Assembly: GCA_023447635.1 (NCBI GenBank)
Contig: JAEXNA010000219.1
Span: 27,678 to 91,677, forward strand
Length of the DNA stretch: 64,000 nt
Direction of reading: 5' to 3'
Source of the DNA: Vulcanimicrobiota bacterium
Lineage (GTDB): Bacteria; Vulcanimicrobiota; Xenobia; Xenobiales; JADMJV01
Shown: one piece after another, positions 1,358 through 37,010 of the stretch
How positions within the stretch are numbered: position 1 is the first letter of the stretch
Layout: the number at the start of each line of letters is the position of its first letter
Translations under genes and position numbers: made by a program
Notes under the pieces: generated by a model
Database searches by the model: none
The model's input: the letters and a program-made list of their open reading frames with translations, nothing else
What the model was told of the DNA's origin: nothing

Positions 1358-1475
1358 CGTAAAAGGCACGCCACAGACGGCGTGGCTGACCTACCGCTTT
1401 CTCGATACCCCGGAAAAGAAACCCACTAAAGACGGCGGTTCTCCTCGCGCGGAGCGAATCCCCCTAAAATAAGGG

Positions 1476-8006: not shown

Positions 8007-8263
8007 GCTCGAAATCCTCTCACAGCCTTCTCAGGCCGTCCTGAAGGGACGGAGTACGAAGCTTCTCTGAGACAACTCTGCTGCACCACGATATATTGAA
8101 CTCCCCCGGGCGAGATTTGCTCCGCTCTGACCGAACGCCACCGGCCAGGGGCACAACCCCGGGTTAGTGGCTTCTCCTCAGAGAAAGGGATTCCCCCGAC
8201 GCTAGTAGTTAGATACCGTTCGCCGGGAGAGGTATCAGCCGTTTAGACTGTTCTCGGAGTAGC

Positions 8264-11200
8264 CTAGCGCGGTACCAGGCGAAGCCCAAAATCGGTCATC
8301 TCGTAGATCGGGATCCCGTCGACGCGCAGGAACCCGGCGCCCAGCAGGATCGGTTCCGCGCCGCCTTCACGGCGAGTGATCGAGACGTCCACCGTCACCT
8401 TTTTGTTCTTCGGAATCACCTGTCCGCGGTAGGCCCAGGTGTGGGGCAAACCGACCGCAACCGGCTCGAAGCGGTGGGTGTCCAGACACTCCGGCCAGTA
8501 CTGCAGAGCGGCGTATTTCAGCAGCTGCAAAAACGCCTCCAAACCTAGCGATCCGGGCCATACGGGGTCCTCGAAGAAGTGAGCTTTGAAGAACCATTCG
8601 TCCGGGTCGACGATCTTGCTGCCCTGCACGTAGCCCAGCCCCTTGAGGCCGCTTTCGGGCAAGAACAGGTCGACCTGATCCATCATCAAGAGCGCCTTGG
8701 CCGGCATACACGCGCTGGGTCCGGCGTCAAGCTGAGGGTCTTCGGGCGAGAGCGGATGGAACAGGGTGAAGGTGGTGGGACGGGCCGAAGCGGTCTCGGC
8801 CTGGCTGGGGGTATAGGTCCGACGAGCCGCATCGCGGACCCCGAGCTGGTTGGCCAGAGCGGCCGCCGAGAAGAAGCCGAAGTAGGTCGTACCCTCATAG
8901 TACAACTCATCGCCGACCCACATCTGCATAGCGAAGTTTTCGATGATCATGCCGCCCGCTTCGGACACTTCGGTCATCTTGACGCGCATCCGAACGGTGC
9001 CCACGCCGGGGAAGAACTCCTTGTGCAGGGTAGCCGTTCCGCCCAGGTTGCGGAACTTGACGTCGGTCTCCGAGCGCAGCGCCGAACCCAGGTAGCCGGC
9101 CAGCCAGCCGCAGGGTTGGAGGGCGGCTTCGAGCAGAATGCAGTAAGCCATGGAGTCCTGGCGGTTGGCCGCGAAGTACCACTCGTCGGGCGGCACGTCG
9201 TAGTGCGCCTCGATCCAGTCGCCGGCCTGCAGCACGAACTTGGGCTGGTTGACTTCGACCACCCGGTCCATGAACTGGTAGGGCGGCCCGGGCAGGCGAG
9301 CGATCTTGCGCTCATTGTCGAACACCGTGTACTCGGGACCGAAGGCCAGCGAGGGGCGGCCGTTCGAGTACTGCATGATGCTCTCTTTGTCGTAGAGCAC
9401 CTCGTAGGTGGGGGCCGGACTCTCGACCGCCGGAGAGGCAGCCGCGCGGCCGGCCCAGATGCTGTCGACGTCGTGCTGGGTAAGACCGGTCAACTGCATC
9501 GACATGTCGACAAAGCGCACGATCGGCTTGCCGTCGCCAAACATCAGCGCATCGGCCAGCACGTAGGGCTCCGGCCCGAAGCCGATCTCCTTGATGTCGA
9601 CCTGGTAGAGCACCTTCTTGGTCTTCACGGTGACCGGACCACGGCACTTCAACGCGGCCGGCACTTCGAGTTTCGGCTCGAAGGCCACCCGGGACTCTTC
9701 CGAGAGCCAGCCCATTCGCGCCAGCAAGAAGCGCAGGGTATGAGCGCAGCACTCATACATCAGGGTGCCGGGCATCACCATGTCGTCGGTGAAGTGGCAG
9801 GTCAGGAACCAGTCGTCGGGATGGATGTCGGCCTCGGCCTCGATCTGGCCCAGCCCGAAGCGGCCGCCGTCGGCCTTCAGCGAAGTGACGCGGTCGAACA
9901 GCTTCATCCGCCCCTCGGGCAGACCGTAGGGGCGCTGCAGCGGCAGACCGGCGAACCCATCGCCGAAGCAGCCCACCAGGTCGCGGCGACGGAAGGCGGC
10001 GACCTGAGCGTCCGAGTAGGACTCGACGGCGCCTAACCCGCGAGGGAACGGCGCCTTGGGAGCCCAACCGGCAGGGGCCTTACCGGGAACCGGCTCCTTA
10101 TCGCGCTTGGTCAGCACGATACCACCGGAAGCTTCGATCTCGGCGTAGGTGTGGAAGCCCGCGCAGCCTTTGCGCATGGTGATCAGCGGCTGACCGTCGA
10201 TGGTGCCGTCGAACTCGAAGAAGAACAGATAGACTTCGCCCTGCTGGACGAACCGGTTGATGCGAATGTCGTACACGATCACCTCACCGGGTTGGGGCAG
10301 CCCGCGATGGAACTGTACGGTGGCGTCGAGCAGACGGTAGGCCCGGTCGGGAGAGGTCACCAGGTCGATGCCCAGGTAGGAGGAGAGGAAAAGGTCGGCT
10401 TGTCCGGCCTCGACCGAGATGCAGACGGGAGCGCGGTCGTGGTCCAGGTACCAGGCCTCGGGGAAAACGTCGTGCTCGGTGATCAGCCGTCCGCCGGTCA
10501 TCGAGCCCGGCTCGCCTTCCACGCCCATCATCCGGTCGCACAGCATCAGCGGCTCGTCAGGCAGGCGTACCCGAACGGAACGCTTGTCCACGGAAGCGAA
10601 CTGAGGGCCCAGAACTTTCTCGACCGAACCGATGGCGAACTCCATACAGGCGGCGCGGTTCAGCCACGCTTGACCGTCGCGGTGGCGTTCGCCCCGCATG
10701 ATCGGGTTGGGAGAGTTCGGGTCGATTTTGGCCCAGGGGCTCTCCTCCTCGACCTGACGCAGGTGCACCGGCGCCAGAGGAAGGACCGTCGCCTGAGCCG
10801 CCGAGTCGCCCCCGGGCAGCGCGCCGCCCAGCAGGCTCTCGATGCGCTGACGAGTCTGCTCCATCAGTTCCAGGTAGGCCTCGTGAGCCAGCGAGGTCTG
10901 GCGGGTGCTCTCTACGATAGAGGCAGCCAGACGAGCGGCCGGGTCCCCGGCGTAGTCGGGGTGCAGGCCGATGACCGGGCTCAACTCGTGTCCGGGCGTG
11001 GTGGGGGGCGTCATAATCTGTCCATCCTTTGTCAGTGTCTTGGGTCGAGAAGCTTGAGGTCCGCTCCACACCAGCGCCCTCTTCGGGGCCCCGGTGGGGT
11101 GGGAGGGAGGCGGGGTGGGAGCCGGAGCGGCTACGGTGGAGGGGGCAGCGGTCGGCGTGGGAGCGCTCCGGGCCACCACGGGAGTGGGCGCAGGCCGGCT

Positions 11201-14200
11201 CACCGCGGGAACGGGCGCCGGAGCGGGGGTCGCTGAGCGGGCCGGCGCCGGAACCTGAGCCGCCACGGGAGCAACCCCAGGGGTAGCGGGCGCAGGAGCG
11301 GCGGGTCGCGCCGGAGCGGGAGCGGGGGAAGCTGCGGCAGGGGCCGGGGGAGCTTTGCGGGTTACCGGGCTGGCCAGTCGGCGGGCCAGGCCCGAACCCG
11401 AGCCCACCGCGATGCTGGGACGGCTGCCCCGACGCGCACCCTCACGGGCCGCCGGATAGAGCGCCCCGAGGTCGACCTTGCCGCCGTGCACGTAGGTCGA
11501 GGCCAGCAGGCGCAGCAGCGCCATCGCCTCGCCCGTCTTGGGCAGCGAGAGCGAGCGGCTCCAGAACTCTTCGCCCTGCAGGATCGAGCGAATCATGCGA
11601 GCGCACGAGCCGCCCGGACCGATCTCGATGAAGTGGCGCACGCCGTCGCGGTGAGCTGCCTGGACCAGCGCCGGGAAGGAGAAGCCGTGCAGGGCGTTTT
11701 CGGTGATCGACTCGGCCGCGCTTTCCCGATCGGGAACGTAAGCCCGCTGGCGAAATCCGTTGTAGAAACGCACCCCTTCGGGCGGCGTGGTGGGCAAGCG
11801 GTGCAGTTCGCGATAGCTTTCGGCCACCGGGTGCATCAGCGCGCAGTGCACGGTGGGCACCCCGTCGAGGGCGAACAGGTCGCATTTCAGGCGGTCCGCC
11901 ACCTCGTCGAGCGCCTCGGCGGCTCCGCCGATCACGCACTCCTCGGGCGTGTTGACGATGAGCAGGAAGACATCGCCCCGCTCCCGTCCCGCGATCGCCT
12001 CGCGCACCTCGGCTTCGGGCTTGTTGACCACCGCTACCCGCCAGTCGAACGGCTGGTCGGCGGCGAGGCCGAGCACCTCGCGAGCGGTCTGATAGCCGGC
12101 GCGCAGTTGGCTCAGGAAGAGCGGCGAAGCCATGGTCTTTTCGAACATCTCGTCGCGAGCCTGCCAGGCGCCCATCGAGAACAGCGCGGCCGTCTCGCCC
12201 AAGGAATAACCGATGGCGGCCTGGGGCGGCTCCAGGAACAGCCCGAGCACTCGTGAGGCCAGGATGGCAAAGGTAACTTGACTGAAGATCGGGGCCAGCG
12301 GGTCGTTGTCGATGGCGGCCAGCGCCTCGGCCTCCCACCCGTCTCCCCTCTCCGAGGCAAACGGCTGAGTCAACCAGGGGGTGAAATGCTGGTACGACGT
12401 GGCGGCCTCGGAGGAGACCTGAGCGGCCACCTCGGGGAACAGCACGGCCAGTTCGCGGCCCATGCCCAGATAGTGATTGCCCGAGCCGGGAAACACCCAG
12501 GCGGTTTCGCCCGGGGTCGGCGCGGCCTGGAAGAACACTCCGGCCTGCCCATCTAAAGCGGGCGTCTCGCCCCGAGCGCAGCGCTCGAGCAGGTCCAGTC
12601 CGGCCAGAAGTTCGCTTGCGTTACGGGCGACCACGGCGCCGCGAGGACCGGCCACGTTGGCCTCCTGCGAGGTCGACCAGTCGCGTGCCAGCGCCTCGAA
12701 GGGGCCGGGCTCCCCCGCCGCCGAGCGCAGAGCGCCCAGGGAGGCGATGGGCAGCAGGAACAGCTGAGCCGGCAGGGCTCGCGAGCGAACTCCGGCTTCC
12801 GCCAGGCCTCCCCCCTTACCGCCTTCGCGCAGCAGTACGGCGTGGCTGTCGCGACCGGACGAATGGCCCACGCTGACCGCGCGACGCGGCCCCTGACGGT
12901 CGTCGTGCCACCAGAACGAAGCCTCGCGAGGCAGATAGGTACCCACTGGCGTGGGCAGCGGCTGTTGCAGTCCGACCACGCCCGGCAGCACCTTGCTATC
13001 GAGCGCGGTGGCTGCCGAGATCACCGAGAGCAGTCCGCCCAGGGCGCCGCCCTGGCCAAAGCTGCCCACCTGAGTTCCGAAGGCGGTCGGCCGGGCTCCC
13101 CCGGCGGGAGCGGGGAAATGGTGGCCGTAATGCTTCAAGAAACGAGCGTCGTCTTCGGGGTCGGCCCAGCTGAGCACGTCGACAAAGCCGGGAGCCTCGC
13201 CGTCCAGCTTCCTCGAGAGCGCTTCGAGATTGCGGATCAGCGCCCGCGGCCCCGAAGTGGCGAACACCTCATCGAGCACGGCCAGGATGCGATCGCCGTC
13301 GGCCTCGGCCGCGGCCCGGCTCTTGAGCACCAGCGCCACCGCCCCCTCGGCCACCGTAGCGCCCTGACCCTGAGGGTCGAAGGGTCGGGCCACGCCGCCC
13401 CTGGCCAACCGTTTGCCTCGGTCCTCGGCCCAGACACAGCGCGGGTCGCCGGCCAGGTCGATGGCGCCGATCAGGCAGCTGTCCATCTCTCCGTTCTGGA
13501 TGGCGCGCATTCCGATCTCCAGGGCGCGCACTCCGGACAGCTCTCCGCAAGAGATAGCGTAGGACGGCCCACCCAGAGAGAATTCGCGAGCGGCTCGAGA
13601 GGCCGCGATGCTGCCCAGAGCGCCCAGGGTACGAGTGCTGTCCAGCGGACGCGAGAGGGTCGCGCGCAGCCGCTCCCGTGCGGCATCGTCCAACTCTTCG
13701 GGGCGGACGCCCAGTCGAGAAAGCATGCGCGGCAGGGCCCAGCGCAGGTGGAAGTTGGTCGTCTCCATATCCAGGCTGATGCCGATCAGGGCGCCGCTGC
13801 GACGGCAGCGCTCCTTGGGGCCCAGCGTGCTGCGCTCGGTGGCCTGGTGGGCCGCCGCCAGCAGCAGCGACTGCTGCAGCAAGATGTCGGGCAGGTCCAT
13901 CGGAGGCACCCGGAACTCGCCTGCCTCGACGTGAAGCGCTTCGAGGTAGCTGCCCCAGACCTCTTCTAGCGAGGCCATCGAACCTTCCAGCCGGTCGGGC
14001 CAGCGGTTCTCGGGACGCGGCGTGGCGGCGCTACGTCCCAGCAGGCGGTCGACCAGGAAACGCTCGAAGTCGTGCTCCTGCCCGATCTTGACCGCCACCG
14101 AAGTGATCACCACCTCGTCCACCGGCGCGGGCTGCCCCACGGTCTCGGGCCCAAACCCCGGCTCTTCGACCAGAACGTGTCCGTTGATGCCGCCGAAGCC

Positions 14201-15466
14201 GAAAGCGGAAACGCCCGCCCGCAGCGGGTCGCTCGACTGCCAGGCCTCGGGCTTAGTGAGCACGCGGAACGGGGTGTCCTGGAAATCGATCCCCTTCGAG
14301 GGGCTCTCGAAGTTGTTCATCGGGGGCAAGGTGCGAGTCTCGATCGCCTTGATCACCTTGATCAGGCCGGCCACGCCCGCGCCGGTCAGAAGGTGACCAA
14401 TCTGCGATTTCACCGAACCCAGTACGGTGCCGGGAGCGTCAGAGCGCTCTTCTTGCCAGAACTTGCGCAGCGAGTTGAACTCGATCTTATCGCCCTTGGG
14501 CGTGCCGGTACCGTGGCACTCGACCAGACCCACCTGGTCGGCCCTCCAACCGGCCTGACGGTAGGCCTCGTTCAGAGCGCGAAGTTGGCCCTCGGTGTCG
14601 GGTGCCAGCAAGCTGCCCCCGACATCGTTGGAAAGGCCGATACCGCGAATCACAGCGTAGACTCGGTCGCCCTGAGCCAGCGCGTCCGGCAGGCGTTTGA
14701 GCAGCAAGAAGCCCGCTCCCTCTCCCACCACCAGGCCGTCGCCTTTGTGGTCGAAGGGCGAACAGCGGCCGCTCGGACTCAAAGCGCCCAGAGCGGTGAA
14801 GCCCGCCTGGGTGTAAAGGTTGTCGGCGCGATTGGCGCCGCCCGCCAGCACCGCGTCGGCACGTCCGTCGGTCAGGGCGTCACAGGCTAGCTTCACCGAA
14901 TACAGCGAGGAGGCGCAAGCCGCATCCAGGGTCAAGGTGAAGCCGCCCAGCCCCAGGGCGTCAGCCACCACTTCAGCCGGACGCCCGGTGACCTGACGGT
15001 CCAACGGTCGAGACAGCGGTTCCGGCGTTTCCGGGCGAGGACTCAGGCTCTGGGCCAGGGTGTCCAGGAAAAACTCCTCGGACAGGCGCGACGACTCCAT
15101 CGTGGGCAGTGCGATCGAAGCCAGGATAGTCGCCACGCGAGAGCGGTCCTCGAGCTTGCCCCGGGCGTCATCGAGGGTCATCTCGGCGGCCACCAGGGAC
15201 AGACGACTGAGATCGTCCAAGCCTTCACCGCTCACGCTGCGCGGCTGCGGAATCGCATCCATCAAACAGGCGCGCAGCGAACCGACGCCGTCAGCGCCCG
15301 TGCCGTTCTTGGCGAACCAGTTCGGGTCGGCGGGCCAGCGCTCGGCCGGCACCTCGCGAGAGGCGTCGTAGCCGCTCAGGATGTTGTTCCAGAAAGCCGG
15401 CACGTCGGGGGCCGAAGGAAATACTCCGCCCATCCCCACGACAGCGATGGCATAAGGTCTTTTCAC
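8264..15466 (-). CDS. pfaC: PUFA-synthase-type PKS subunit, KS-CLF-AT-(Pro/Ala linker)-DH-DH (PfaB/PfaC-like fusion)
   Basis: KS active-site DAACASSLYSVKLACDAL and ECHGTGTPKGD. A second KS-like (CLF) domain follows. AT motif GYSLGETAALFSMGAW. Long Pro/Ala-rich linker. Two FabA-like hot-dog DH domains (HFTDDMVMPGTLMYE; FFEDPVWPGSLGLEAF). GTG start with AAGGA 8 nt upstream. Confidence 0.9.
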   Translation of the reverse strand: MKRPYAIAVVGMGGVFPSAPDVPAFWNNILSGYDASREVPAERWPADPNWFAKNGTGADGVGSLRACLMDAIPQPRSVSGEGLDDLSRLSLVAAEMTLDDARGKLEDRSRVATILASIALPTMESSRLSEEFFLDTLAQSLSPRPETPEPLSRPLDRQVTGRPAEVVADALGLGGFTLTLDAACASSLYSVKLACDALTDGRADAVLAGGANRADNLYTQAGFTALGALSPSGRCSPFDHKGDGLVVGEGAGFLLLKRLPDALAQGDRVYAVIRGIGLSNDVGGSLLAPDTEGQLRALNEAYRQAGWRADQVGLVECHGTGTPKGDKIEFNSLRKFWQEERSDAPGTVLGSVKSQIGHLLTGAGVAGLIKVIKAIETRTLPPMNNFESPSKGIDFQDTPFRVLTKPEAWQSSDPLRAGVSAFGFGGINGHVLVEEPGFGPETVGQPAPVDEVVITSVAVKIGQEHDFERFLVDRLLGRSAATPRPENRWPDRLEGSMASLEEVWGSYLEALHVEAGEFRVPPMDLPDILLQQSLLLAAAHQATERSTLGPKERCRRSGALIGISLDMETTNFHLRWALPRMLSRLGVRPEELDDAARERLRATLSRPLDSTRTLGALGSIAASRAAREFSLGGPSYAISCGELSGVRALEIGMRAIQNGEMDSCLIGAIDLAGDPRCVWAEDRGKRLARGGVARPFDPQGQGATVAEGAVALVLKSRAAAEADGDRILAVLDEVFATSGPRALIRNLEALSRKLDGEAPGFVDVLSWADPEDDARFLKHYGHHFPAPAGGARPTAFGTQVGSFGQGGALGGLLSVISAATALDSKVLPGVVGLQQPLPTPVGTYLPREASFWWHDDRQGPRRAVSVGHSSGRDSHAVLLREGGKGGGLAEAGVRSRALPAQLFLLPIASLGALRSAAGEPGPFEALARDWSTSQEANVAGPRGAVVARNASELLAGLDLLERCARGETPALDGQAGVFFQAAPTPGETAWVFPGSGNHYLGMGRELAVLFPEVAAQVSSEAATSYQHFTPWLTQPFASERGDGWEAEALAAIDNDPLAPIFSQVTFAILASRVLGLFLEPPQAAIGYSLGETAALFSMGAWQARDEMFEKTMASPLFLSQLRAGYQTAREVLGLAADQPFDWRVAVVNKPEAEVREAIAGRERGDVFLLIVNTPEECVIGGAAEALDEVADRLKCDLFALDGVPTVHCALMHPVAESYRELHRLPTTPPEGVRFYNGFRQRAYVPDRESAAESITENALHGFSFPALVQAAHRDGVRHFIEIGPGGSCARMIRSILQGEEFWSRSLSLPKTGEAMALLRLLASTYVHGGKVDLGALYPAAREGARRGSRPSIAVGSGSGLARRLASPVTRKAPPAPAAASPAPAPARPAAPAPATPGVAPVAAQVPAPARSATPAPAPVPAVSRPAPTPVVARSAPTPTAAPSTVAAPAPTPPPSHPTGAPKRALVWSGPQASRPKTLTKDGQIMTPPTTPGHELSPVIGLHPDYAGDPAARLAASIVESTRQTSLAHEAYLELMEQTRQRIESLLGGALPGGDSAAQATVLPLAPVHLRQVEEESPWAKIDPNSPNPIMRGERHRDGQAWLNRAACMEFAIGSVEKVLGPQFASVDKRSVRVRLPDEPLMLCDRMMGVEGEPGSMTGGRLITEHDVFPEAWYLDHDRAPVCISVEAGQADLFLSSYLGIDLVTSPDRAYRLLDATVQFHRGLPQPGEVIVYDIRINRFVQQGEVYLFFFEFDGTIDGQPLITMRKGCAGFHTYAEIEASGGIVLTKRDKEPVPGKAPAGWAPKAPFPRGLGAVESYSDAQVAAFRRRDLVGCFGDGFAGLPLQRPYGLPEGRMKLFDRVTSLKADGGRFGLGQIEAEADIHPDDWFLTCHFTDDMVMPGTLMYECCAHTLRFLLARMGWLSEESRVAFEPKLEVPAALKCRGPVTVKTKKVLYQVDIKEIGFGPEPYVLADALMFGDGKPIVRFVDMSMQLTGLTQHDVDSIWAGRAAASPAVESPAPTYEVLYDKESIMQYSNGRPSLAFGPEYTVFDNERKIARLPGPPYQFMDRVVEVNQPKFVLQAGDWIEAHYDVPPDEWYFAANRQDSMAYCILLEAALQPCGWLAGYLGSALRSETDVKFRNLGGTATLHKEFFPGVGTVRMRVKMTEVSEAGGMIIENFAMQMWVGDELYYEGTTYFGFFSAAALANQLGVRDAARRTYTPSQAETASARPTTFTLFHPLSPEDPQLDAGPSACMPAKALLMMDQVDLFLPESGLKGLGYVQGSKIVDPDEWFFKAHFFEDPVWPGSLGLEAFLQLLKYAALQYWPECLDTHRFEPVAVGLPHTWAYRGQVIPKNKKVTVDVSITRREGGAEPILLGAGFLRVDGIPIYEMTDFGLRLVPR

Positions 15467-15480
15467 GATGGGTCCTTTGT

Positions 15481-15519
15481 CTTGTCAGGAAAAACAAGCC
15501 CGGGCCCCGCGGGGCCCGG
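15481..15519 (-). terminator. intrinsic-terminator-like element between pfaA stop and pfaC start (GC hairpin plus U-tract)
   Basis: On the minus (sense) strand, a perfect 20-nt palindrome CCGGGCCCCGCGGGGCCCGG lies 7 nt after the pfaA TAA. It is followed by GCTTGTTTTTCC. A second small hairpin (CTTGT...ACAAG) sits beside it. Confidence 0.35.
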
Positions 15520-15526
15520 ACCGGGG

Positions 15527-18500
15527 TTAGCGAGCGAGGGCGCCGCTCAGACCGAAGGCGGCCTTCAGGGCGTCGTCGGCGGTCCACTCGAGCCGCTCGA
15601 AGCGGCCCAGCAGGTTGCCCTTGGCGTCAATCAGGTCGCAGTCGGCCACCAGGGCGCGGTCGCTGTGGCTGACCACCTTCAGGACGGCCTTCACGCCGCT
15701 CTTCGGGTAGCGGTTGACGAACTGGCGATAGTGGGCGAAGCCGTTCGGCAGCGAAGGCTTGCCCAGACCGTCCCAGCACCAGAGAATGCCAAGCTGCAGC
15801 ACTCCGTCGACCACTAGCGGTTCGGTGGCCCAGTCCGAGCGCAGCGGATCTCGTTCCCACTCGGCGGGTTTCCCGGCCGACTTCAGTTCGGCCACCAGGC
15901 CGCCTTCGGAGATGCCCGACACCCCGCTCACGGCGTGGAAATCCGGCCCGTGGAAGAGCAGTTCCGAGTAGATGGCGTCGGGCGAGTGGCTATAGCTGCG
16001 CGTGCTCAGAGGGGCGGGATCGAACGGCGCGGGGGCGCTGTCCTGAGCGTCGCCCAGGACCACGGTCGCCCGAGCGTGCAGCGCGTTGCGGCCGGTGTCC
16101 TTGAGCTCTAACGTCGCGTGGGTGCGACCGTCGACGACCTTCGTCGAGACCACGCTCACGGCAAGCGTCGGCTCGACCCCACCGCTTACGGTGACGCCGC
16201 GGAACACCCGCAGATCATCGAGGCCCACCAGGCGCATTCCGGCGCCCGAGAGCAGGGCGCCCTGAGTGAACCATTCCATCATGAAAGCCATCGGTAGCAC
16301 CGGCTGACCTTTGAGCTTGTGCGAATCGAGGAACGGCAGTGCGCTGACCGAGATCGCCTTCTGCAGGAGCTGCTCTCCCCCACCGCTCTGCCCCTCGCTC
16401 GAGGACGAGGTGCGCGGCTTGGGAGAGACCGGCTCGGGGAAGCCGTCGCCGAACAGCACTTCGGCCTGGCCGGCACCGTGGTGCGACAGTTCATCAACCA
16501 CGGCCTGAGCGCCGGCTTCGAGCGGGATCAAGCCCACGCCGATCCGCTCGAACTCTCGAGCCAGGGCGGGAGTGACCATTCCGCCCGCCCAGGGACCCCA
16601 GCCCATGGCGACCATGGTGCAGCGGGGGCGGCGGCGCGATTCTAGCTGGGCGAACTTATTGAGCACCTCGTTGGCCATGCAGTAGTCGACCTGACCGGGC
16701 CGTCCGAAGCGGGCGGTCACGGACGAGAAGAACAGCATGGTCTTCAAGTCGGGCAGCAGTTCGTTGAGGATGAGCAAGCTGTCGATCTTGGTCGAGAAGA
16801 CGCTCTGGAACATCTCGTCGGTCTTGTCTTCGATCTTGCGGTCGGCCAGCACGCCGGCGCCGTGGATCAGGGTGGTGATGGCCCCGAGCTGCTTCTGCAC
16901 TTCGGCCAGGCCGGCTTTCAGACCGTCCTTATCGCGCACATCGCAAGCCAGGTAAACAGCTTCCACTCCGGCCTCAGCGAAGGCGGCCAGAGTTCCCTGC
17001 ATCTCACGCTGAGCGGCGACCTTGTTGGCCACGCCCTGGAGGTCCTTCGGCGTCGCTTTGCCGCCGAACTGGCGCTGCATGATCTCGCGCTTGAGAGCGC
17101 CTTCATCCTCGATACCGGGATAGAGGTCGAAGTCGGGTCCTTCCAGCGGGGTGCGTCCCAGCAGGACGAACTTGCTGCCGTAGGCGCGAGCGGTGGCGAT
17201 AGCGCAGGCTGCGGTCACGCCGCGAGCGCCACCGGTCACCAGCACGACGTCCTTCTTGCCCAGGCGAGGAGCTCCCGCACTGGCCTGAGCCGTCGCGGTG
17301 ACCAGGGTCTCGCGACGACCGGGGCTTAGCGCGACTTCAACCGGGCCGTCTTTCATCAGCTCTTCGAGCACCGTTTCCACGGTGATCTCCGGATGACGAT
17401 CGATGGCGCGGGTGAACACCTCGGGCCACTCGTGAGCTACCGTCTTGGGCAAGCCGGCCAGACCGCCGATGAAGGGGTCGAACGCCTTGCCCTTGAGGCC
17501 GAAGCTGCCGTCCAGGGTGGTTACGGTGAACAGCGCGCCGCCGCTCTTACGCAGAGCCGGCGCCGCTTCGCGGGTGCGCTGGAAAGCGGTCATCAGGAAC
17601 TCGCGCGAACGCTGTCCGTCGCCGCCGTTGCCGACCAGCACCAGAGCGCCCAGGTTGGCCGGGAGGGCGCTGCCCGCCTCGACCTTCTCCACCTCCACGC
17701 CGCGCGACTGCAGGGCACCGACCAGTTCGTCGCCGAGGCCGGGGGTGTCCTCGAGCACGGCCAGAACCGCGCCCTCAGGCAGGGGCAGGCCGCTGGCCTG
17801 TCCCGGGCCCAGGTCGATCAGCTGCAGGCACTGACGGCTGATGGTACGAGCTGCGGGGGGAGCTGCCACAACGGTCGGAGCGACCACATGCGCGGCCGCA
17901 GCCCCACCAGCCGGAGTCATCGCGACCACGATTTCTCCCAGGGTGCGCAGGCTGCCGAGGCGGTCAGCGTCGACCTTGGGAAGGCCGGGCATGACTTCCT
18001 CGACGGAGGCCAGAATTTCCACCCGCTTGATGCTGTCGATGCCCAGGTCGGACTCCAGGTCCATCTCCAGGTTCAGCATCTCCTGCGGATAGCCGGTCTT
18101 CTCGGCCACCACGGCCAGCAGAGCGGCGGTCACGCCCGAGGCGTCCCCTCCACCGGAAGCGGCCGGAGCAGCAGGGGCGGCGGGGGCAGCCGCTGCAGGA
18201 GCGATCCCTTTGGGAGTCATCGCTTCCACGATCTCGCCCAGGGTGTGCAGACTGCCCAGACGGTCGCTGTCGACCTTGGGCAGACCGGGCAGCGCTTCTT
18301 CTACCGAAGCCAGGATCTCGACCCGCTTGATGCTGTCGATCCCCAGGTCGGACTCCAGGTCCATCTCCAGCGTCAGCATGTCCACGGGGTAGCCGGTCTT
18401 CTCGGCCACCACGACCATCAGCGCTTTGGCCACGCCGGGGTCGGTCGCGGGAACGCCCGTCGCAGGAGCGGCGTGGGCGGTCAACTGGGGCTGCAGGTCG

Positions 18501-21500
18501 CCGGCCGGGGTCATCGCTTCCACGATTTCGCCCAGGGTGTGCAAGCTGCCGAGACGGTCGCTGTCCACCTTGGGAAGGCCGGGCATGGCTTCTTCCACGG
18601 AGGCCAGGATTTCAACCCGCTTGATGCTGTCGATCCCCAGGTCGGACTCCAGGTCCATCTCCAGGGTCAGCATATCCACCGGGTAACCGGTTTTCTCGGC
18701 CACCACGTTCATCAGGGCGCGGGCCACTCCGGTGGCACCAAGGCCCATGGCGGGGGCAGAGTGGGAGGCGGCGGCGGGCGCCGAAGCGGTGGAAGCGGGA
18801 ACGCCTGCGGCCGGGGTCATCGCGGCCACGATCTCGCCCAGCGTGCGCAGGCTGCCGAGACGGTCGCTGTCCACCTTGGGAAGACCGGGAACGGCTTCTT
18901 CCACGGCGGCCAGAATCTCGACGCGCTTGATGCTGTCGATCCCCAGGTCGGCTTCGAGATCCATCTCCAGGTTGAGCATCTCGGCCGGGTAGCCGGTCTT
19001 GTCGGCGACCACCTTGAGCAGTGCGCCGGAGACGGCTCCGGAGGGAGCTGCGGAGGAGGCGGTGGGAGCGGAAGCGGTGGGAGCGGAAGCGGGAAGTCCG
19101 CCGGCCGGAGTCATCGCGGTGACGATCTCGCCCAGCGTGCGCAGGCTACCGAGGCGGTCGCTGTCCACCTTGGGCAGCCCGGGAACGGCTTCCTCGACGG
19201 CGGCCAGGATCTCGACGCGCTTGATGCTATCGATACCGAGGTCGGCCTCCAGGTCCATCTCCAGATTCAGCATCTCTACGGGGTAGCCGGTTTTGTCGGC
19301 CACCACCTTGAGCAGAGCGCTCGAAACCGCTCCAGAGGGAGCCGCAGAGGCAGCGGGAGCAGCAACGGGAGCGGCCGCTTTGGGTAGTCCGCCGGCCGGG
19401 GTCATCGCGGTCACGATCTCGCCCAGCGTGCGCAGAGCGCCCAGACGGTCGCTGTCCACCTTGGGAAGGCCGGGAACGGCTTCTTCGACGGCGGCCAGGA
19501 TCTCGACCCGCTTGATGCTGTCGATGCCCAGGTCGGCTTCGAGATCCATCTCTAGATTCAGCATCTCCTGGGGGTAGCCGGTCTTGTCGGCGACGACCTT
19601 GAGCAGCGCCTTCGAGACCGAATCGTCGGCCACGCCGCTGCCCAGCACCTGGTCGACCGGCGAGGCCACCGAGGCGATAGCGGGGGTGTGAACCTTCACC
19701 GGTGCCGGTGCCGGTGCCGGTGCCGGGCGGGCCGCCACAGGGGCGGGAGCCGCAGCGGCCGGGCGTGCCGGAGGGGCAACGGGAGCCGGCGCGATGGGGC
19801 GCGCGGGCGCCGCAACGACGGGAGCCGAAGACACGGGAGCCGGAGCTACGGGGCGAGCCGGGGCGGCAGGAGCAGCGGCGTGCTGCGCGGCCTGACCGGC
19901 CAGCAGCGCACCCAGAGCGCTCTGAGCCGCTTCCTGGCTTTTCAGGAACTGCTGATGGACCTGAGCCGTCTGGCGTGTCAGCTCTTGCAGCGCCTCGAGG
20001 TGAGGCAGCAGGCTGTCCAGAGCCGCCGGAGCGGCCACGGGAGCGACAGGGCGCTGAGGCGCCGGGGCCTGGGCAGGAGCCTTGGCTGCAGCTACAGAGG
20101 ACGGAGTCGGAGCAGCTGGAGCGGGAGCCGCCGGACGAGCCGGAGGGGTCGCTGGCAGGCTGACCGTAGCTTTGGCTACCGCAGGAGCGCTGTGAGCCGC
20201 CGGAAGAGCCGCCTTTACGACGGGAGCTGCAGCGGGAGCGGCGCTCTTGACGCCAACCGAATTGGGCTCGCGCACGGGCGGCTTCTTGCCGTTGCCCGAG
20301 CGGTAGTTGGCGCCCGAGATCGGCACCGTCATGCGGCGCTTGGCTTCGGCGGCGGGCTTCTCTTCCCACTGCGCCAGCTCGACCGGTAGACCGGCGGCCG
20401 CCAGTTCGGCAAGAGCCGTGGCAAGGTCCAGCAGTCCGCTTTTCTTGCCTACCGAGCGGTCCATCGGAACCACCTTGATGTCGCTCTTGTCTTTGAGGAT
20501 CGCCTTGACCAGACCGGTCAGCACCGTCTTCGGGCCCACCTCGATGAAGGTGCGGAATCCGTCGGCGTACATCTTCTCGATCAGGCCCACGAAGTTGACC
20601 TGGTGCACCAGCTGGTCGGCCAGCAGAGCCCGGGCGGTCTTGCCGCTGGCGGGATACAGCTCGGCGGTCTTGTTGGCGTAAACCGGGATTTCGGACTTGT
20701 TGAACTTGACCTTACCGGCCACCTTGTGGAACGGGTCGCGAGCGCCCGCTACGAAAGAGCTGTGGAAGGCGGCGCCGACTTTGAGCGGCACGCCGCGCAG
20801 GCCGGCCTTCTTCAGCTCGGGGGCCAGCGCTTCGAGGTCCTTGGCGGAGCCGCTCAGCACGCACTGGTCCGGAGAGTTACGGTTGGCCAGAACCACGGGA
20901 GTCTTGGTCTCGGCCAGAACCTGCTCGACCTTGTCCAGGGTGCCCTTGACGGCCATCATGGTGCCCAGGTCGTCGCCCTGCGAGGCCATCAGGCGGCCGC
21001 GCTCGCGGGACAGCTCGACCAGGCCCTCCCCGTCCAGGACGCCGGCGGCGTACAGGGCGGACAGCTCGCCGTAAGAGTGACCGGCGGTGCCTTCCGGCTT
21101 GAGGCCGAAGCGCTCGAGCAGGTGGAAGTAGCCGCGCTCCATCACGCCCAGAGCGGGCTGGGCGCGGTCGGTGGCGGTCAGGAAGTCGCCCTGGGCGGCT
21201 TCTTCGGCCTTGTCGAACACGGGCACCGGGTAGATGGCGTGAGCGATGTCGCGACCGGTGGCCTCCAGCGACTCGAGCAGTTCGGGGAAGGCGCAAGCCA
21301 GGTCCACGCCCATGTTCACATACTGCGAACCCTGACCGGGGAAGAGGAAGGCGACCTTGCCGTTGTCGGCGCTGCCCGACGAGGAAAACTCGGAGGCTTC
21401 GCCCTTCTTTAGCTTGTCCAGAGCGGCCGTCAGCGCGCTCGCGAAGTCGTCGGACAGCGCCGGCACCACCAGGCGGTGAGCATCGGCGCGGTTGAACGAC

Positions 21501-23047
21501 TGGCGGGATTCCCAGGCGATCAGCGAGGAGTGGCGGCTGTCGTCGAGGGCGCCCTGCACCTTCTTGATCAGCTCGTCCTTGGATCCGGCCGAGAAGGCGG
21601 CCAGTTCGACGCTGCCGTCCCAGGCCGTATCCTTACGCTGAGCGCCGTACTCTTCGAGCACCAGATGGAAGTTGCTGCCGCCGAAGCCGAAAGAAGACAG
21701 TCCGGCCCGGCGAGGGTGATCGGGGTGCGAGACCCAGGGGCGGCTGATGGTGTTCAGATAGAACGCGCTGTCTTCGATGCCCAGCTTGGGGTTCGGCTTG
21801 GTGATGTTGATGGTGGGCGGGAAGATCTTGTAGTGCAGCGCGAGAGCCGCCTTGATCAAGCCAGCCGAACCGGCGGCGGCTTTGGTGTGCCCGATCTGGG
21901 ACTTCACCGAACCCATGGCGCACCAGTTTTTGTCGCTGGAAACCTCGCCATAGACGGTCTTGAGCCCTTCGAACTCGACCACGTCACCGACCTTGGTTCC
22001 GGTACCGTGGGCTTCCACCAGCTCTACCGTGCGGGGCGAAACTTCGGCGTTCTCGTAAGCGCGGCGCAAGGCGCGAGCCTGTCCGTGCGACATCGGAGCG
22101 TAGACCGCGCCGCCTTTCCCGTCGCTGGCCGTTCCGACGCCGCGGATCACGGCGTAGATCTTGTCGCCGTCACGCTCGGCGTCGGCCAGGCGCTTGAGTA
22201 CGACCATGCCCAGGCCTTCACCCAGCATGGTGCCGTCGCTTTCGGCGTCGAACGGACGGATCTTCCCGGAGGCTGACAGGGCGGGCGTCTTCGAGAAGCA
22301 CATGAACATGAAGATGTCGTTGAAAGTGTCGGTACCGCCGGTGATCACCATGTCGGCCTGACCGGTCTGCAGTTCCAGGAACGCCAGGTGAGCCGCCGAC
22401 AGGGTCGAGGCGCAGGCCGCATCGACCACGCAGTTGGTCCCGTGCAGGTCCAGGCGGTTGGCGATACGTCCGGCGACCACGTTACCAAGCAGACCGGGGA
22501 ACGAGTTCTCCTGCCAGGGCACGTAGTCGGCCGAGATGCGCTGCATGACCTCTTCCACCAGCTCCGGGCCCAGGCCCGACTCTTGCAGCGCCTTCTTCCA
22601 GTAGGGGTGGCCCAGGCGAGCGCCCAGCGGAACCACCAGTTCGAGAGTGCCGGTGACACCCAGGATGACCGAGGTGGTGCTGCGGTCGAACTCGCGGTCC
22701 GGTCCATAACCGGCGTCTTCCAGGGCCGCCTTGGCAGCGACCAGACCCAGCAGCTGCGAGGTGTCGGTCGCCTCCAGCGCGGTGGGCGGCATGGAGAACT
22801 CTGTGGGGTCGAAAGGATAGGGATCCAGGAAGCCGCCGCGGCGACAGTAGGTCATATCCGACGCCTTCTGGTTGGCGTCGAAGTAGTCGTCCGGACTCCA
22901 ATGGGTGTCCGGGATCTCCGAAATGGTGTCAGTGCCGAGTCGAAGGATCTTCCAGAAAGACTTCAGGTTGTTGGCCTTCGGATAGAGGGCCGACATGCCC
23001 ACGATGGCGATGTCGGTTCTCTGGGACTGAGCGGGAGCGTTCTTCAT
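15527..23047 (-). CDS. pfaA: PUFA-synthase-type PKS subunit PfaA-like: KS-MAT-6xACP-KR-DH
   Basis: KS (DAACASTLSAAHLAF, EAHGTGTKVGD, GHTKAAAG). MAT (FLFPGQGSQYVNMG, GHSYGELSALYAAG). Six tandem ACPs, each with the LGIDSIKRVEIL phosphopantetheine-site motif. KR (VVLVTGGARGVTAACAIA). C-terminal PKS-type DH. Confidence 0.9.
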   Translation of the reverse strand: MKNAPAQSQRTDIAIVGMSALYPKANNLKSFWKILRLGTDTISEIPDTHWSPDDYFDANQKASDMTYCRRGGFLDPYPFDPTEFSMPPTALEATDTSQLLGLVAAKAALEDAGYGPDREFDRSTTSVILGVTGTLELVVPLGARLGHPYWKKALQESGLGPELVEEVMQRISADYVPWQENSFPGLLGNVVAGRIANRLDLHGTNCVVDAACASTLSAAHLAFLELQTGQADMVITGGTDTFNDIFMFMCFSKTPALSASGKIRPFDAESDGTMLGEGLGMVVLKRLADAERDGDKIYAVIRGVGTASDGKGGAVYAPMSHGQARALRRAYENAEVSPRTVELVEAHGTGTKVGDVVEFEGLKTVYGEVSSDKNWCAMGSVKSQIGHTKAAAGSAGLIKAALALHYKIFPPTINITKPNPKLGIEDSAFYLNTISRPWVSHPDHPRRAGLSSFGFGGSNFHLVLEEYGAQRKDTAWDGSVELAAFSAGSKDELIKKVQGALDDSRHSSLIAWESRQSFNRADAHRLVVPALSDDFASALTAALDKLKKGEASEFSSSGSADNGKVAFLFPGQGSQYVNMGVDLACAFPELLESLEATGRDIAHAIYPVPVFDKAEEAAQGDFLTATDRAQPALGVMERGYFHLLERFGLKPEGTAGHSYGELSALYAAGVLDGEGLVELSRERGRLMASQGDDLGTMMAVKGTLDKVEQVLAETKTPVVLANRNSPDQCVLSGSAKDLEALAPELKKAGLRGVPLKVGAAFHSSFVAGARDPFHKVAGKVKFNKSEIPVYANKTAELYPASGKTARALLADQLVHQVNFVGLIEKMYADGFRTFIEVGPKTVLTGLVKAILKDKSDIKVVPMDRSVGKKSGLLDLATALAELAAAGLPVELAQWEEKPAAEAKRRMTVPISGANYRSGNGKKPPVREPNSVGVKSAAPAAAPVVKAALPAAHSAPAVAKATVSLPATPPARPAAPAPAAPTPSSVAAAKAPAQAPAPQRPVAPVAAPAALDSLLPHLEALQELTRQTAQVHQQFLKSQEAAQSALGALLAGQAAQHAAAPAAPARPVAPAPVSSAPVVAAPARPIAPAPVAPPARPAAAAPAPVAARPAPAPAPAPVKVHTPAIASVASPVDQVLGSGVADDSVSKALLKVVADKTGYPQEMLNLEMDLEADLGIDSIKRVEILAAVEEAVPGLPKVDSDRLGALRTLGEIVTAMTPAGGLPKAAAPVAAPAASAAPSGAVSSALLKVVADKTGYPVEMLNLEMDLEADLGIDSIKRVEILAAVEEAVPGLPKVDSDRLGSLRTLGEIVTAMTPAGGLPASAPTASAPTASSAAPSGAVSGALLKVVADKTGYPAEMLNLEMDLEADLGIDSIKRVEILAAVEEAVPGLPKVDSDRLGSLRTLGEIVAAMTPAAGVPASTASAPAAASHSAPAMGLGATGVARALMNVVAEKTGYPVDMLTLEMDLESDLGIDSIKRVEILASVEEAMPGLPKVDSDRLGSLHTLGEIVEAMTPAGDLQPQLTAHAAPATGVPATDPGVAKALMVVVAEKTGYPVDMLTLEMDLESDLGIDSIKRVEILASVEEALPGLPKVDSDRLGSLHTLGEIVEAMTPKGIAPAAAAPAAPAAPAASGGGDASGVTAALLAVVAEKTGYPQEMLNLEMDLESDLGIDSIKRVEILASVEEVMPGLPKVDADRLGSLRTLGEIVVAMTPAGGAAAAHVVAPTVVAAPPAARTISRQCLQLIDLGPGQASGLPLPEGAVLAVLEDTPGLGDELVGALQSRGVEVEKVEAGSALPANLGALVLVGNGGDGQRSREFLMTAFQRTREAAPALRKSGGALFTVTTLDGSFGLKGKAFDPFIGGLAGLPKTVAHEWPEVFTRAIDRHPEITVETVLEELMKDGPVEVALSPGRRETLVTATAQASAGAPRLGKKDVVLVTGGARGVTAACAIATARAYGSKFVLLGRTPLEGPDFDLYPGIEDEGALKREIMQRQFGGKATPKDLQGVANKVAAQREMQGTLAAFAEAGVEAVYLACDVRDKDGLKAGLAEVQKQLGAITTLIHGAGVLADRKIEDKTDEMFQSVFSTKIDSLLILNELLPDLKTMLFFSSVTARFGRPGQVDYCMANEVLNKFAQLESRRRPRCTMVAMGWGPWAGGMVTPALAREFERIGVGLIPLEAGAQAVVDELSHHGAGQAEVLFGDGFPEPVSPKPRTSSSSEGQSGGGEQLLQKAISVSALPFLDSHKLKGQPVLPMAFMMEWFTQGALLSGAGMRLVGLDDLRVFRGVTVSGGVEPTLAVSVVSTKVVDGRTHATLELKDTGRNALHARATVVLGDAQDSAPAPFDPAPLSTRSYSHSPDAIYSELLFHGPDFHAVSGVSGISEGGLVAELKSAGKPAEWERDPLRSDWATEPLVVDGVLQLGILWCWDGLGKPSLPNGFAHYRQFVNRYPKSGVKAVLKVVSHSDRALVADCDLIDAKGNLLGRFERLEWTADDALKAAFGLSGALAR
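17890..19630 (-). repeat. six tandem ~290-bp ACP-encoding repeats within pfaA
   Basis: The peptide xxALLKVVADKTGYPxEMLNLEMDLEADLGIDSIKRVEILAAVEEAVPGLPKVDSDRLGSLRTLGEIV recurs six times. The repeats also show up as a ladder of near-identical spurious plus-strand ORFs (17841.., 18210.., 18426.., 18732.., 18999.., 19293..). Confidence 0.85.
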
Positions 23048-23092
23048 GGATCTCTGGTTCCTCTTATGGATTTCGATGGTAAGGGACGGCGG

Positions 23093-24727
23093 TTACGAGA
23101 AGTAGGGCGCGAGTTCGGCGTCCGTTTTGGGGCGGAACTCCTGCAGCTCGTGACTCAACGGCACGCCCTGCTGACGCAAGGCGTGGACCCGGCCCAGATA
23201 AGCGGCGCCGGCGAGAATATTACGGGCGACCACGCCCGCTTGGCGAGCCTTCGGCTCGGCCAGATAGCTGTCGCCGACCCACTGGTTGAAGGCGCCCATG
23301 GCGGGACCGCACCAAACCTGGTAGTCGACCTTGCGGTCGGCGATACCCGAGTTGGCCCAGCCCGAGGCGCGGCCGAGGTAGGAGCGGAAGACCAGTGCCA
23401 TCTTGTGTTTGGGGTCGGCGGCGGCGCGCTGGTTCTGGCGCGGGTCGCGACCTTCGAAGAATTTGTGGGTGTCGGCCCAGACTTCGTCGAGGGTCTGACG
23501 GAAGAAGGTCTTCTCCAGCACGGCGCGCTCGGAGGCGGGCAGCTCTTCCATAGAGCCGTAGTCGCGGTAAAGCTGATACAGCTTCTTGGCGCGCACGGGG
23601 AACATAGTGCCCCACTTCAGCACCTGGACCTGAACGCCCATTTCGAACATATCGGCGGCAGGCGCCATCGCCATGTCGGCTTGTCCGGCTTTGCACAGCA
23701 TCTCGCGCACGATATCAGAGCTTCCCGACTCGAGGCAGGACTGGTTGACGCTTCCGGTCAGAATGTAAGAAGCGCCCATCGCAAAGGCGGCACAGGCCGA
23801 GGCCGGGGTCGAGATACCGCCGGCAGCGCCAACCCGCAGCACCACGCCGCGGTCGCCGTACAGCTTCTGCTTCTCGTCGCGCAGAGCGATCATGGTAGGA
23901 AGCAGAGCCAGAGCCGGGCGGTTATCGGTATGTCCGCCGGAATCGGCTTCGGCCGTCAGGTCTTCGACCACCGGCATCAAGGCGGCAAGTTCCGCCTGTT
24001 CGGGGGTCAGGTCGCCGCGCTGCACCAGTTCGCGCAGCATCTTCTCGGGCGGCGGAGCGAAAAACTTCTCGGCCACCTCGACGCGAGACACCTTGCCCAG
24101 CACCTGCTGGCGCATCACGATCTCGCCGTTGTCGTTGCGCGAGATGCCGTGGAAACGGTACTTCAAGAGCGGGAGCGTCAGACCCAGGTAGGCCGAGGCG
24201 CTGACCCGCTTGACCCCTTTGCGAAGGTAGAGATCGACGATCCCCTCTTCCAGGTCGGGCTCGTTGGGCGAGTGGATCAAGTTCGAGCCGAACGGCTTGT
24301 CGCCCAGGCTCGCTTGCAGGCGGTCGATCGATTTCTCGACCACGTGCAGCGGAAGTCCGGCGGCGCCGAACACGCCCAGCGTGTTGGCCTCGGCGGCGGC
24401 CTGGACCAGTTCGACCGAGGTGATGCCGTTGGCCATCGCCCCGACCACATAGGAGTAGTCGACTCCGTGGGCCTTCCGGAACGAGGCGTCGCCCAACCCC
24501 GCGGGGGTCAGTGAAGGCAAGAAGCCGGCAAAGGTCCAGCCGTCTCCATCGCCTGCGCCCAGTTCGCCCTTGTCCACAGGGGCCAGCGCGATCTCATCGC
24601 CCTTGCGCACCACGAAATAGGATTCGCCCAGAGACTGCAGCCCCTGTCCTAAACCCTCTTGTCCTTGTAGCAGAGCGCTCGTGTCGCCCCTCCAACCCAA
24701 CTTCGCCGTCATACTCAAAACGTCCAT
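23093..24727 (-). CDS. pfaD: PfaD-like FMN-dependent trans-acting enoyl reductase (2-nitropropane-dioxygenase-like)
   Basis: PfaD hallmarks: ...LGWRGD... near the N-terminus, VGAMANGITSVELVQAAAEANTLGVFGAAGL, and a TIM-barrel ER core. The track ORF extends to 24817, but the first ~30 aa look arbitrary. ATG at ~24727 (MDVLSMTAKLGW) or ~24712 gives the usual ~540-aa length. Confidence 0.85.
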   Translation of the reverse strand: MDVLSMTAKLGWRGDTSALLQGQEGLGQGLQSLGESYFVVRKGDEIALAPVDKGELGAGDGDGWTFAGFLPSLTPAGLGDASFRKAHGVDYSYVVGAMANGITSVELVQAAAEANTLGVFGAAGLPLHVVEKSIDRLQASLGDKPFGSNLIHSPNEPDLEEGIVDLYLRKGVKRVSASAYLGLTLPLLKYRFHGISRNDNGEIVMRQQVLGKVSRVEVAEKFFAPPPEKMLRELVQRGDLTPEQAELAALMPVVEDLTAEADSGGHTDNRPALALLPTMIALRDEKQKLYGDRGVVLRVGAAGGISTPASACAAFAMGASYILTGSVNQSCLESGSSDIVREMLCKAGQADMAMAPAADMFEMGVQVQVLKWGTMFPVRAKKLYQLYRDYGSMEELPASERAVLEKTFFRQTLDEVWADTHKFFEGRDPRQNQRAAADPKHKMALVFRSYLGRASGWANSGIADRKVDYQVWCGPAMGAFNQWVGDSYLAEPKARQAGVVARNILAGAAYLGRVHALRQQGVPLSHELQEFRPKTDAELAPYFS

Positions 24728-24817
24728 TCCACCGCCACGATTCCTAGCGACAGACCTCGCGAAGCGGCATGAAGCCGCGCCCAGGTCCATGCCGTTCCCT
24801 TTTGGGGAGGTCGGCAC

Positions 24818-25028
24818 TTCGAAGCGCGGCTTGACAGGTTGGCCGCTTCCCTTGCGATGTCTCGCAGTCGCTGATTTCTGCCCCTATAACGCGCGTCGAT
24901 GGCGCTTTATTGCGCCGCCCCGGAAAAAATGAGGAGAATTCCAAGACTCATTTTCCGAAGCGTCAACCCCCTCGCTTCCCCCCGCCGCGCCAGGAGGAGG
25001 TTGAGCGCGCATCGGAAAGGCCCCGCTC
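24818..25028. promoter_or_regulatory. divergent intergenic region between pfaD and an HTH gene, carrying two AT-rich palindromes (likely operator/promoter region)
   Basis: GGCGC-TTTATT-GCGCC at ~24901-24916. AAAATGAG-N13-CTCATTTT at ~24926-24954. These are AT-rich islands in a ~67% GC genome, 75-125 bp upstream of the 25029 start. A TTGACA hexamer lies at ~24829. Confidence 0.3.
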
Positions 25029-28121: not shown

Positions 28122-28194
28122 TCCTCCAACAGGCCTTCCCTCCCCTCCCCCTGAAGTGGAGGGGAATCTCCCCAGAGACGAAAGGCCGCCCGCC

Positions 28195-30921: not shown

Positions 30922-30928
30922 GCGACCC

Positions 30929-31858: not shown

Positions 31859-31861
31859 CTC

Positions 31862-31900
31862 CGAGTCTTCAGAATACCGGGAATTAGGGCTTCCCGTTGG
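31862..31900. terminator. possible bidirectional hairpin in the 46-bp convergent gap
   Basis: TAGGGC-ttcccgttggg-GCCCTA inverted repeat between convergent genes 30929..31858 (+) and 31905..32795 (-). No U-tract. Confidence 0.2.
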
Positions 31901-31904
31901 GGCC

Positions 31905-35689: not shown

Positions 35690-35846
35690 TACCCCGGCCG
35701 GTTCTGTTCCGCCCTTCTCGCCCCTGCTTCCACCCTCAATCCCCTGGCACGCACCTGTACGGCGAGGGGGCATACCGCAGGCCTACCCGGGTGGGGAATT
35801 CCCGAGCGGGGCGAGGAAGCTTCCGGAGGTTGGAGAATGTCGCCAT

Positions 35847-37004: not shown

Positions 37005-37010
37005 ACCAAC

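Follow-up and report, generated by a model that had tools for sequence, protein, structure and literature searches.

A pfa-ole gene cluster of Vulcanimicrobiota with a duplicated membrane protein in the place of oleA

Type I clusters for polyunsaturated fatty acid (PUFA) synthases, in which pfaB and pfaC are fused, are often linked to the olefin-forming ole genes and most often have a phosphopantetheinyl transferase (PPTase) gene nearby (Shulse & Allen 2011, PMC3098273). Geobacter bemidjiensis makes hentriacontanonaene (C31:9), and the same authors put forward the idea that olefin synthesis is supplied by Type I synthases (PMC3098273). In Shewanella, OleA is the enzyme that mediates the link between Pfa and Ole (PMC6463001). 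From the literature, such clusters are expected to couple the two systems and to yield a C31:9-type polyene (PMC3098273, PMC6463001). The ole genes are known to occur as oleABCD, as oleBC fusions and as oleACD (PMC7064751). Here we describe a pfa-ole locus in a 64,000-nucleotide stretch of DNA from an uncultured, Xenobia-like bacterium of the Vulcanimicrobiota (Eremiobacterota) (contig JAEXNA010000219.1, positions 27,678 to 91,677), the whole of which we call the window. In this locus, the position of oleA is taken by a gene for a membrane protein of an unannotated family, designated X, and a second X gene follows oleD.

The predicted operon lies on the minus strand in the order pfaD-pfaA-pfaBC-X1-oleB-oleC-oleD-X2, as determined from the open reading frame (ORF) map and tblastn. 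Seven complete, co-oriented genes run from 24817 down to 1476, and X2 is an eighth, incomplete gene. The gaps of 45, 60 and 257 bp reported for this locus in an earlier note were confirmed by the ORF map, which also showed overlaps of 4 bp each between X1 and oleB, oleB and oleC, and oleC and oleD. X1 (4935..8006) encodes a protein of 1023 aa. The gene list of the earlier note stopped at oleD and overlooked X2 (1..1357), which begins with an ATG at 1357, 118 bp past oleD, and is cut by the window edge. Its 452 codons present in the window contain no stop, and in tblastn it is 68-76% identical to residues 1-454 of X homologues. The view of X as a mere spacer between the pfa and ole genes does not hold: X sits exactly in the oleA position, is duplicated on both sides of oleBCD, and is the distinctive feature of the locus.

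We scanned the C-terminal 1000 aa of PfaBC against GTDB species genomes, obtained 80 loci (cited here by L numbers), and mapped the pfa, X and ole genes onto them. In 31 loci from Desulfobacterales, Phycisphaerae and Planctomycetes, oleA directly follows pfaBC, and in 20 of these, L025 counted, oleBCD comes next. The other 11 (L017, L022, L028, L030, L033, L042, L048, L056, L059, L064 and L065) gave no oleB match in the available downstream sequence; the pfa-linked part there is oleA, and oleBCD presumably lie elsewhere. The 344-368-aa ORF behind pfaBC in the 31 loci is OleA, as it scored 441-486 bits with NF006720, and its best PDB match was Xanthomonas campestris OleA (3ROW/3S21, E-value 1e-65), compared with about 1e-19 for FabH. 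Members of the corresponding protein cluster carry the Joint Genome Institute (JGI) name 'acyl-CoA:acyl-CoA alkyltransferase'. Four further loci, L055 (Desulfosarcina variabilis), L072, L083 and L084, have oleB after pfaBC without an intervening oleA, and another four (L005, L006, L007 and L021) have X and then oleBCD. No ole genes follow pfaBC in about 29 loci, among them the pfa-only Vulcanimicrobiota loci L009-L016, and 12 loci offered less than 1.5 kb of downstream sequence. The closest relatives outside the phylum are clusters that continue into oleA, with or without oleBCD. As in the window, pfaD precedes pfaA in L025 and L054.

X fills the oleA slot in every locus that bears it (the window, L001-L007, L021 and L090-L094). 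About 10 independent contigs share the order pfaA-pfaBC-X-oleBCD, across X identities of 57-100%. Among the loci with gene calls, the overlap of X with oleB measures 4 bp in the window and L001-L003, and 46 bp in L004 (JGI gene calls). The X1-oleBCD-X2 layout of the window is shared by L004. We also observed that the closest genome record, L005 (JBBCJA010000001.1), is labelled 'Selenomonadaceae bacterium', and that L010, L011 and L016 are labelled 'uncultured Burkholderiales'. These labels of metagenome-assembled genomes (MAGs) are probably wrong, because the pfa, X and ole genes of these records group with those of Vulcanimicrobiota/Xenobia. The genes downstream of the pfa-only Vulcanimicrobiota clusters vary from locus to locus.

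The absence of OleA from the locus, claimed in the earlier note, was borne out by two approaches. No thiolase- or FabH-type Pfam domain was found in the approximately 40 ORFs of at least 150 aa scanned over all 64 kb, and tblastn with OleA sequences of the Desulfobacterales/Phycisphaerae and Xenobia types matched neither the window nor any X-bearing locus. In a profile search with 15 OleA sequences, the match list was filled by Desulfobacterales sequences. The same set of approximately 40 ORFs contained no pfaE-type PPTase by Pfam, again in line with the earlier note, and none appeared in the precomputed annotations of the related loci L001 and L004. A regular expression for PPTase motifs ((F/S)NxSH ... 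WxxKE[AS]) returned nothing in any locus, outgroups included, and is hence uninformative. Only part of the statement that these absences are atypical could be upheld: that of the PPTase is mildly unusual, but an adjacent oleA is also lacking in four loci of the Desulfosarcina type and in one oleBCD-only contig of the same phylum. That contig, L098 (JBDHVW010000164.1), carries an oleBCD operon with neither oleA nor X, followed by an acyl-CoA dehydrogenase gene, and the same Vulcanimicrobiota MAG holds a pfa cluster without ole genes (L013, JBDHVW010000020.1). Canonical stand-alone oleABCD operons exist in the phylum as well, in L095 (a Candidatus Xenobia MAG) and L099 (an Eremiobacterota MAG).

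X1 had no match in Pfam, NCBIfam or PADLOC. Its AlphaFold2 model was confident, with a mean predicted local distance difference test score of 82.6 and a predicted template modelling score of 0.46. The model comprises three repeats, each a helical bundle with a small beta-sheet (approximately aa 1-240, 241-445 and 475-690), an Ig-like beta-sandwich resembling MSP/PapD domains (aa 731-818), and about five hydrophobic helices (aa 833-1022). No signal peptide was found in X, and its large N-terminal part is therefore predicted to be cytoplasmic. We considered whether X is a cryptic OleA or another enzyme and rejected this, since the model consists entirely of helical repeats, the Ig-like domain and transmembrane helices, with no thiolase or other enzyme fold, and no family was matched. 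Kinship between X and four large paralogues elsewhere in the window (28156-42707) was likewise rejected, as blastp gave no match and hhalign a probability of 0.2%.

Only 53 homologues of X were found in a collection of 5.8 billion proteins, a profile search gave 130 representatives among 1.84 billion, and the named records of X homologues are Vulcanimicrobiota or Candidatus Xenobia MAGs. Distant homologues (23-58% identity) in L085, L086, L088 and L089 have T2SSF, prepilin (N_methyl), PilZ and GGDEF-EAL genes as neighbours, a setting that hints at a type IV pilus or type II secretion-like system as the ancestral context of the family. The repeat module of about 200 aa, with its helical and beta parts, also occurs alone or at the N-terminus of 2000-aa NACHT/AAA_16-TPR STAND NTPases (P0216 and P0226), in which PADLOC matched no defence system; this distribution suggests a mobile interaction or effector-type module. 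X seems to have entered the pfa/ole operon out of a membrane-protein family specific to this lineage, because the family is modular and its distant homologues are found away from lipid genes. In a neighbor-joining (NJ) tree of X, the single-X loci (of the L001 type) are sister to the group with X1 and X2, which would place the duplication after the recruitment.

The Pfa part of the operon is an iterative PUFA-type secondary-lipid synthase, 'Type I-like' in the terms of Shulse & Allen. The pfaD gene (23093..24817) encodes the enoyl reductase subunit (574 aa; Pfam NMO and FabD_helical_ins) and scored 599 bits with the TIGR02814 pfaD_fam model (cutoff 449). The pfaA gene (15527..23047), encoding 2506 aa in the order KS-MAT-6xACP-KR-DH, scored 1997 bits with TIGR02813 omega_3_PfaA (cutoff 1010). 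Since both models were matched above their cutoffs, the proteins belong to the Pfa/secondary-lipid synthase family, and the domain models thus support the assignment of the earlier note to a PUFA-type polyketide synthase over a heterocyst-glycolipid or phenolic-lipid synthase. The Pfam content of PfaA includes KS, KS_C, Acyl_transf_1, six PP-binding stretches, KR and a borderline PKS_DH_N. Active-site motifs were found for the KS (the cysteine of 'DAACAS'), the MAT ('GHSYG') and the DH ('HxxxGxxxxP'). The six acyl carrier protein (ACP) domains carry six LGIDSIKRVEIL phosphopantetheine motifs, with the serines at aa 1177, 1274, 1372, 1474, 1572 and 1672. At the DNA level, Tandem Repeats Finder detected the ACP array as a 294-bp repeat in 5.7 copies (17910..19591, minus strand).

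The fused pfaBC gene (8264..15466) encodes 2400 aa with the architecture KS-CLF-AT-DH-DH. Pfam identified a KS, a second KS-like stretch corresponding to the CLF, Acyl_transf_1, and a FabA-like DH in three stretches; NCBIfam matched pfaB_fam and FabA/FabZ stretches, and the AT motif 'GYSLG' lies at aa 1086. Among solved structures, the KS-CLF part (aa 7-679) best matches 6RIW, deposited as 'ORF10' (E-value 6e-90), which we take to be the KS-CLF didomain of a Moritella PUFA synthase. The pfa ORFs, their domain architecture and the PfaB-PfaC fusion had all been described correctly before.

Three ole-like genes follow X1, and their products are here called OleB, OleC and OleD. OleB (4036..4938; 300 aa) is an alpha/beta hydrolase (Abhydrolase_1) and putative beta-lactone decarboxylase, whose best NCBIfam matches were haloalkane-dehalogenase-like models, below their cutoffs. 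It fits an OleB of the haloalkane-dehalogenase type with an Asp nucleophile, in that it retains the nucleophile elbow HDWGG and 54 of the 72 residues that are invariant in the outgroup. OleC (2456..4039; 527 aa) is an AMP-dependent ligase (AMP-binding) and putative beta-lactone synthetase that scored 511 bits with NF006754, above the cutoff of 478. Its best named matches were the olefin beta-lactone synthetase models NF045786 and NF045785 (398 and 371 bits, short of their equivalog cutoffs, 900 and 850), and one member of its homologue cluster carries the JGI name 'olefin beta-lactone synthetase'. OleD (1476..2459; 327 aa) is an NAD(P)H-dependent short-chain reductase that matched the 2-alkyl-3-oxoalkanoate reductase models NF042422 and NF042423 with 300 and 281 bits, below the cutoff of 580, and contains the GxxGxxG and YxxxK motifs. 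Overall, OleB, OleC and OleD retain 67-75% of the positions that are invariant in 16 OleA-linked orthologues. Judged from these residues, the enzymes look functional, and their pockets may be altered.

The phylogenetic placement of the genes bears on how the linkage arose. The nearest relatives of the window OleC outside the X-bearing loci are 47-49% identical and occur in oleABCD operons (L095, L096/97 and L099) or in the oleBCD-only operon of L098. In an NJ tree, which leaves out L098 and L099, the X-linked OleC proteins are sister to those of the L095 and L096/97 oleABCD operons, and not to the pfa-linked ones of Desulfobacterales and Phycisphaerae. In the corresponding PfaBC tree, the X-linked proteins are sister to those of the pfa-only Vulcanimicrobiota clusters. 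Both trees were built by NJ on simple distances, unbootstrapped. Because both place the genes with relatives native to the phylum, it is likely, though not established, that native pfa and native ole operons were joined inside the phylum, independently of other lineages, and that oleA was lost at the junction.

We propose that the operon makes a Pfa-derived very-long-chain polyene, with OleA acting in trans and X1 and X2 organizing the process at the membrane, and we assign this reading a probability of roughly 0.55. The Pfa synthase would build polyunsaturated acyl chains on its six tandem ACPs, activated by a PPTase that, like OleA, is presumably encoded elsewhere in the genome. OleA, a thiolase, would then join two acyl-ACPs by a non-decarboxylative Claisen condensation to a 2-alkyl-3-keto acid. 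OleD would reduce this acid, OleC would form the beta-lactone, and OleB would decarboxylate it to a long-chain cis-olefin; the product would be a very-long-chain polyunsaturated hydrocarbon located in the membrane, like the C31:9 of Shewanella and Geobacter. X1 and X2, in this reading non-catalytic polytopic membrane proteins, may serve as a docking site or scaffold for the OleBCD complex, or may hand the product over to the membrane. In favor of the proposal are the above-cutoff model matches of PfaA and PfaD, the intact catalytic motifs, the conserved gene order, the OleA of the sister loci and the published Pfa-Ole link. An action of OleA in trans is plausible because oleA and oleBCD are separated in other genomes and OleA is present in the phylum.

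Several observations weigh against this proposal. OleA was found neither in the window of 64 kb nor in the 10 kb flanking any X-bearing locus on either side, and the polyene product anticipated in the earlier note is therefore a weaker inference here, as it depends on OleA, the linking enzyme in Shewanella, which is absent locally. X homologues at 58% identity or less (P0046, P0051, P0052 and P0053) adjoin no lipid genes and have T2SSF, prepilin and PilZ genes nearby, so the primary role of X might not concern lipids. In addition, OleB, OleC and OleD share no more than 36-53% identity with their OleA-linked orthologues (means 39-41%), which are 53-59% identical among themselves on average, and replacements at positions invariant in the outgroup occur across the X-bearing clade (for example, R97H and D224H in OleB, and W132P and F247Q in OleC). 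Such divergence and replacements, read from the alignments, could mean a changed substrate.

The alternative that survives best, although we consider it unlikely, is that X is a passenger: a membrane protein of the envelope or pilus, specific to the lineage, which would have come to lie between pfa and ole in the rearrangement that united the two operons and displaced oleA, with Pfa and Ole working as proposed above or with the ole genes in decay. The distant homologues beside T2SSF, prepilin, secretin-like and PilZ genes fit this explanation, as does L004, where the same small pilus-like genes come after X2, and the presence of the repeat module at the N-terminus of STAND proteins marks it as mobile. 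However, X has been kept between pfaBC and oleB across homologues of 57-100% identity, and in one subclade duplicated copies flank oleBCD. Decay of the ole genes is also at odds with their intact reading frames and preserved catalytic motifs.

Somewhat harder to defend is OleA-independent chemistry, in which OleA would be missing from the lineage, and OleD, OleC and OleB would act directly on beta-keto or beta-hydroxy acids released by the Pfa synthase, with X possibly tethering both systems at the membrane. The product would then be a different molecule, for instance a beta-lactone lipid or a polyene of the terminal or mid-chain kind, and not a head-to-head olefin of the C31 type. This chemistry would account for the lack of oleA in every X-bearing locus with X in its exact slot, for the low identity of the Ole proteins to their OleA-linked orthologues with substitutions at invariant positions, and for the oleBCD-only contig in the same phylum; the 4-bp overlap of X and oleB in the window and L001-L003 fits translational coupling. 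Our literature search returned no precedent for it, however, and the reductase motifs kept in OleD imply a beta-keto acid substrate of the type that OleA supplies. Furthermore, the Pfa synthase shows no domain for release or condensation beyond those of its OleA-linked relatives, and an unlinked oleA is common in other lineages. The fullest version of this idea, that the X lineage has dispensed with OleA and uses an X1/X2 membrane platform to couple Pfa directly to OleD, OleC and OleB, which would convert beta-keto or beta-hydroxy intermediates still bound to Pfa into a new class of polyene or beta-lactone lipids, from an operon assembled independently of those in Desulfobacterales and Planctomycetota, seems to us improbable. 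Finally, the pfa clusters of Vulcanimicrobiota without downstream ole genes (L008-L016) imply an ole-independent role of the synthase in this phylum, but a merely coincidental adjacency, with Pfa making membrane PUFAs or another secondary lipid and oleBCD not fed by it, is very improbable given the tight, co-oriented layout with short gaps and the recurrence of the linkage in Desulfobacterales and Planctomycetota, with a seemingly separate origin here, which argues for selection on the pairing.

The noncoding parts of the locus and the remaining genes of the window were also inspected. The divergent intergenic region upstream of pfaD (24818..25028) is presumed from the ORF map to contain the operon promoter. 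A promoter and terminator scan of positions 1-9000 gave nothing above the shuffled expectation; the gap between pfaBC and X contained no terminator and no plausible small ORF, and an Rfam search of positions 1-26000 gave no match. Divergent from pfaD are a flavin-dependent monooxygenase-like gene (Pyr_redox_3/FMO-like; 25633-26724, plus strand) and a 197-aa ORF without a Pfam match. The four large paralogues (28156-30921, plus; 32792-35773, minus; 37011-39173, minus; 39798-42707, plus) encode 720-993 aa, are 27-34% identical over shared regions, have no Pfam match, and look hydrophobic and polytopic from their sequences. Among them lie a T2SSF gene (35685-37004) and a methyltransferase gene (31905-32795). 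A bpMoxR AAA ATPase (PF20030) of the MoxR-vWA-beta-propeller ternary system is encoded at 60747-61823 (plus strand), between large ORFs without a Pfam match.

To our knowledge, no bacterial route to very-long-chain polyunsaturated hydrocarbons other than Pfa-Ole coupling is established. The pfa-ole supercluster as such was already known; new are the exchange of OleA for X, the X copies on both sides of oleBCD, and an assembly in Vulcanimicrobiota that seems to have been independent. Throughout one clade of this uncultured phylum, pfa and oleBCD stay together in one tight operon, with OleA exchanged for a conserved and duplicated membrane protein. With OleA acting in trans, X would be a candidate for a part that Ole complexes are missing, one that docks them at the membrane or handles their product; if OleA is truly absent, the locus would encode new olefin or beta-lactone chemistry. 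That pfa and ole seem to have been joined independently here supports a selected, and not an accidental, pairing.

The closest described systems are the Type I clusters of Geobacter, Desulfuromonas, Pelobacter and Gemmata, together with the pfaD-pfaA-pfaBC-oleABCD loci of Desulfobacterales and Phycisphaerae. They share with our locus the tandem ACPs, the PfaB-PfaC fusion with KS-CLF-AT-DH2 architecture, the separate pfaD and the same-strand ole genes directly downstream, whereas here oleA is replaced by X, a second X follows oleD, and no PPTase gene is nearby. With Shewanella oneidensis, whose pfaEABCD and oleABCD genes yield C31:9, the locus would have in common, by analogy, the supply of Pfa acyl chains to Ole, and with the pfa-pfaT-ole region of Photobacterium profundum, the adjacency of the two operons (PMC6463001). 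In both of these organisms, PfaB and PfaC are separate, OleA is present, and the accessory thioesterase PfaT is nearby (PMC6463001); neither a hot-dog thioesterase nor OleA was detected in the window. The resemblance of X to membrane tethers with a VAP/MSP domain is structural only, with no sequence relationship, and X differs from them by its three additional helical repeat modules and about five transmembrane helices. The oleACD clusters keep OleA and have lost OleB, which leads to beta-lactones, whereas the window cluster keeps OleB without OleA; common to both is a modular ole set of which subsets are re-used (PMC7064751).

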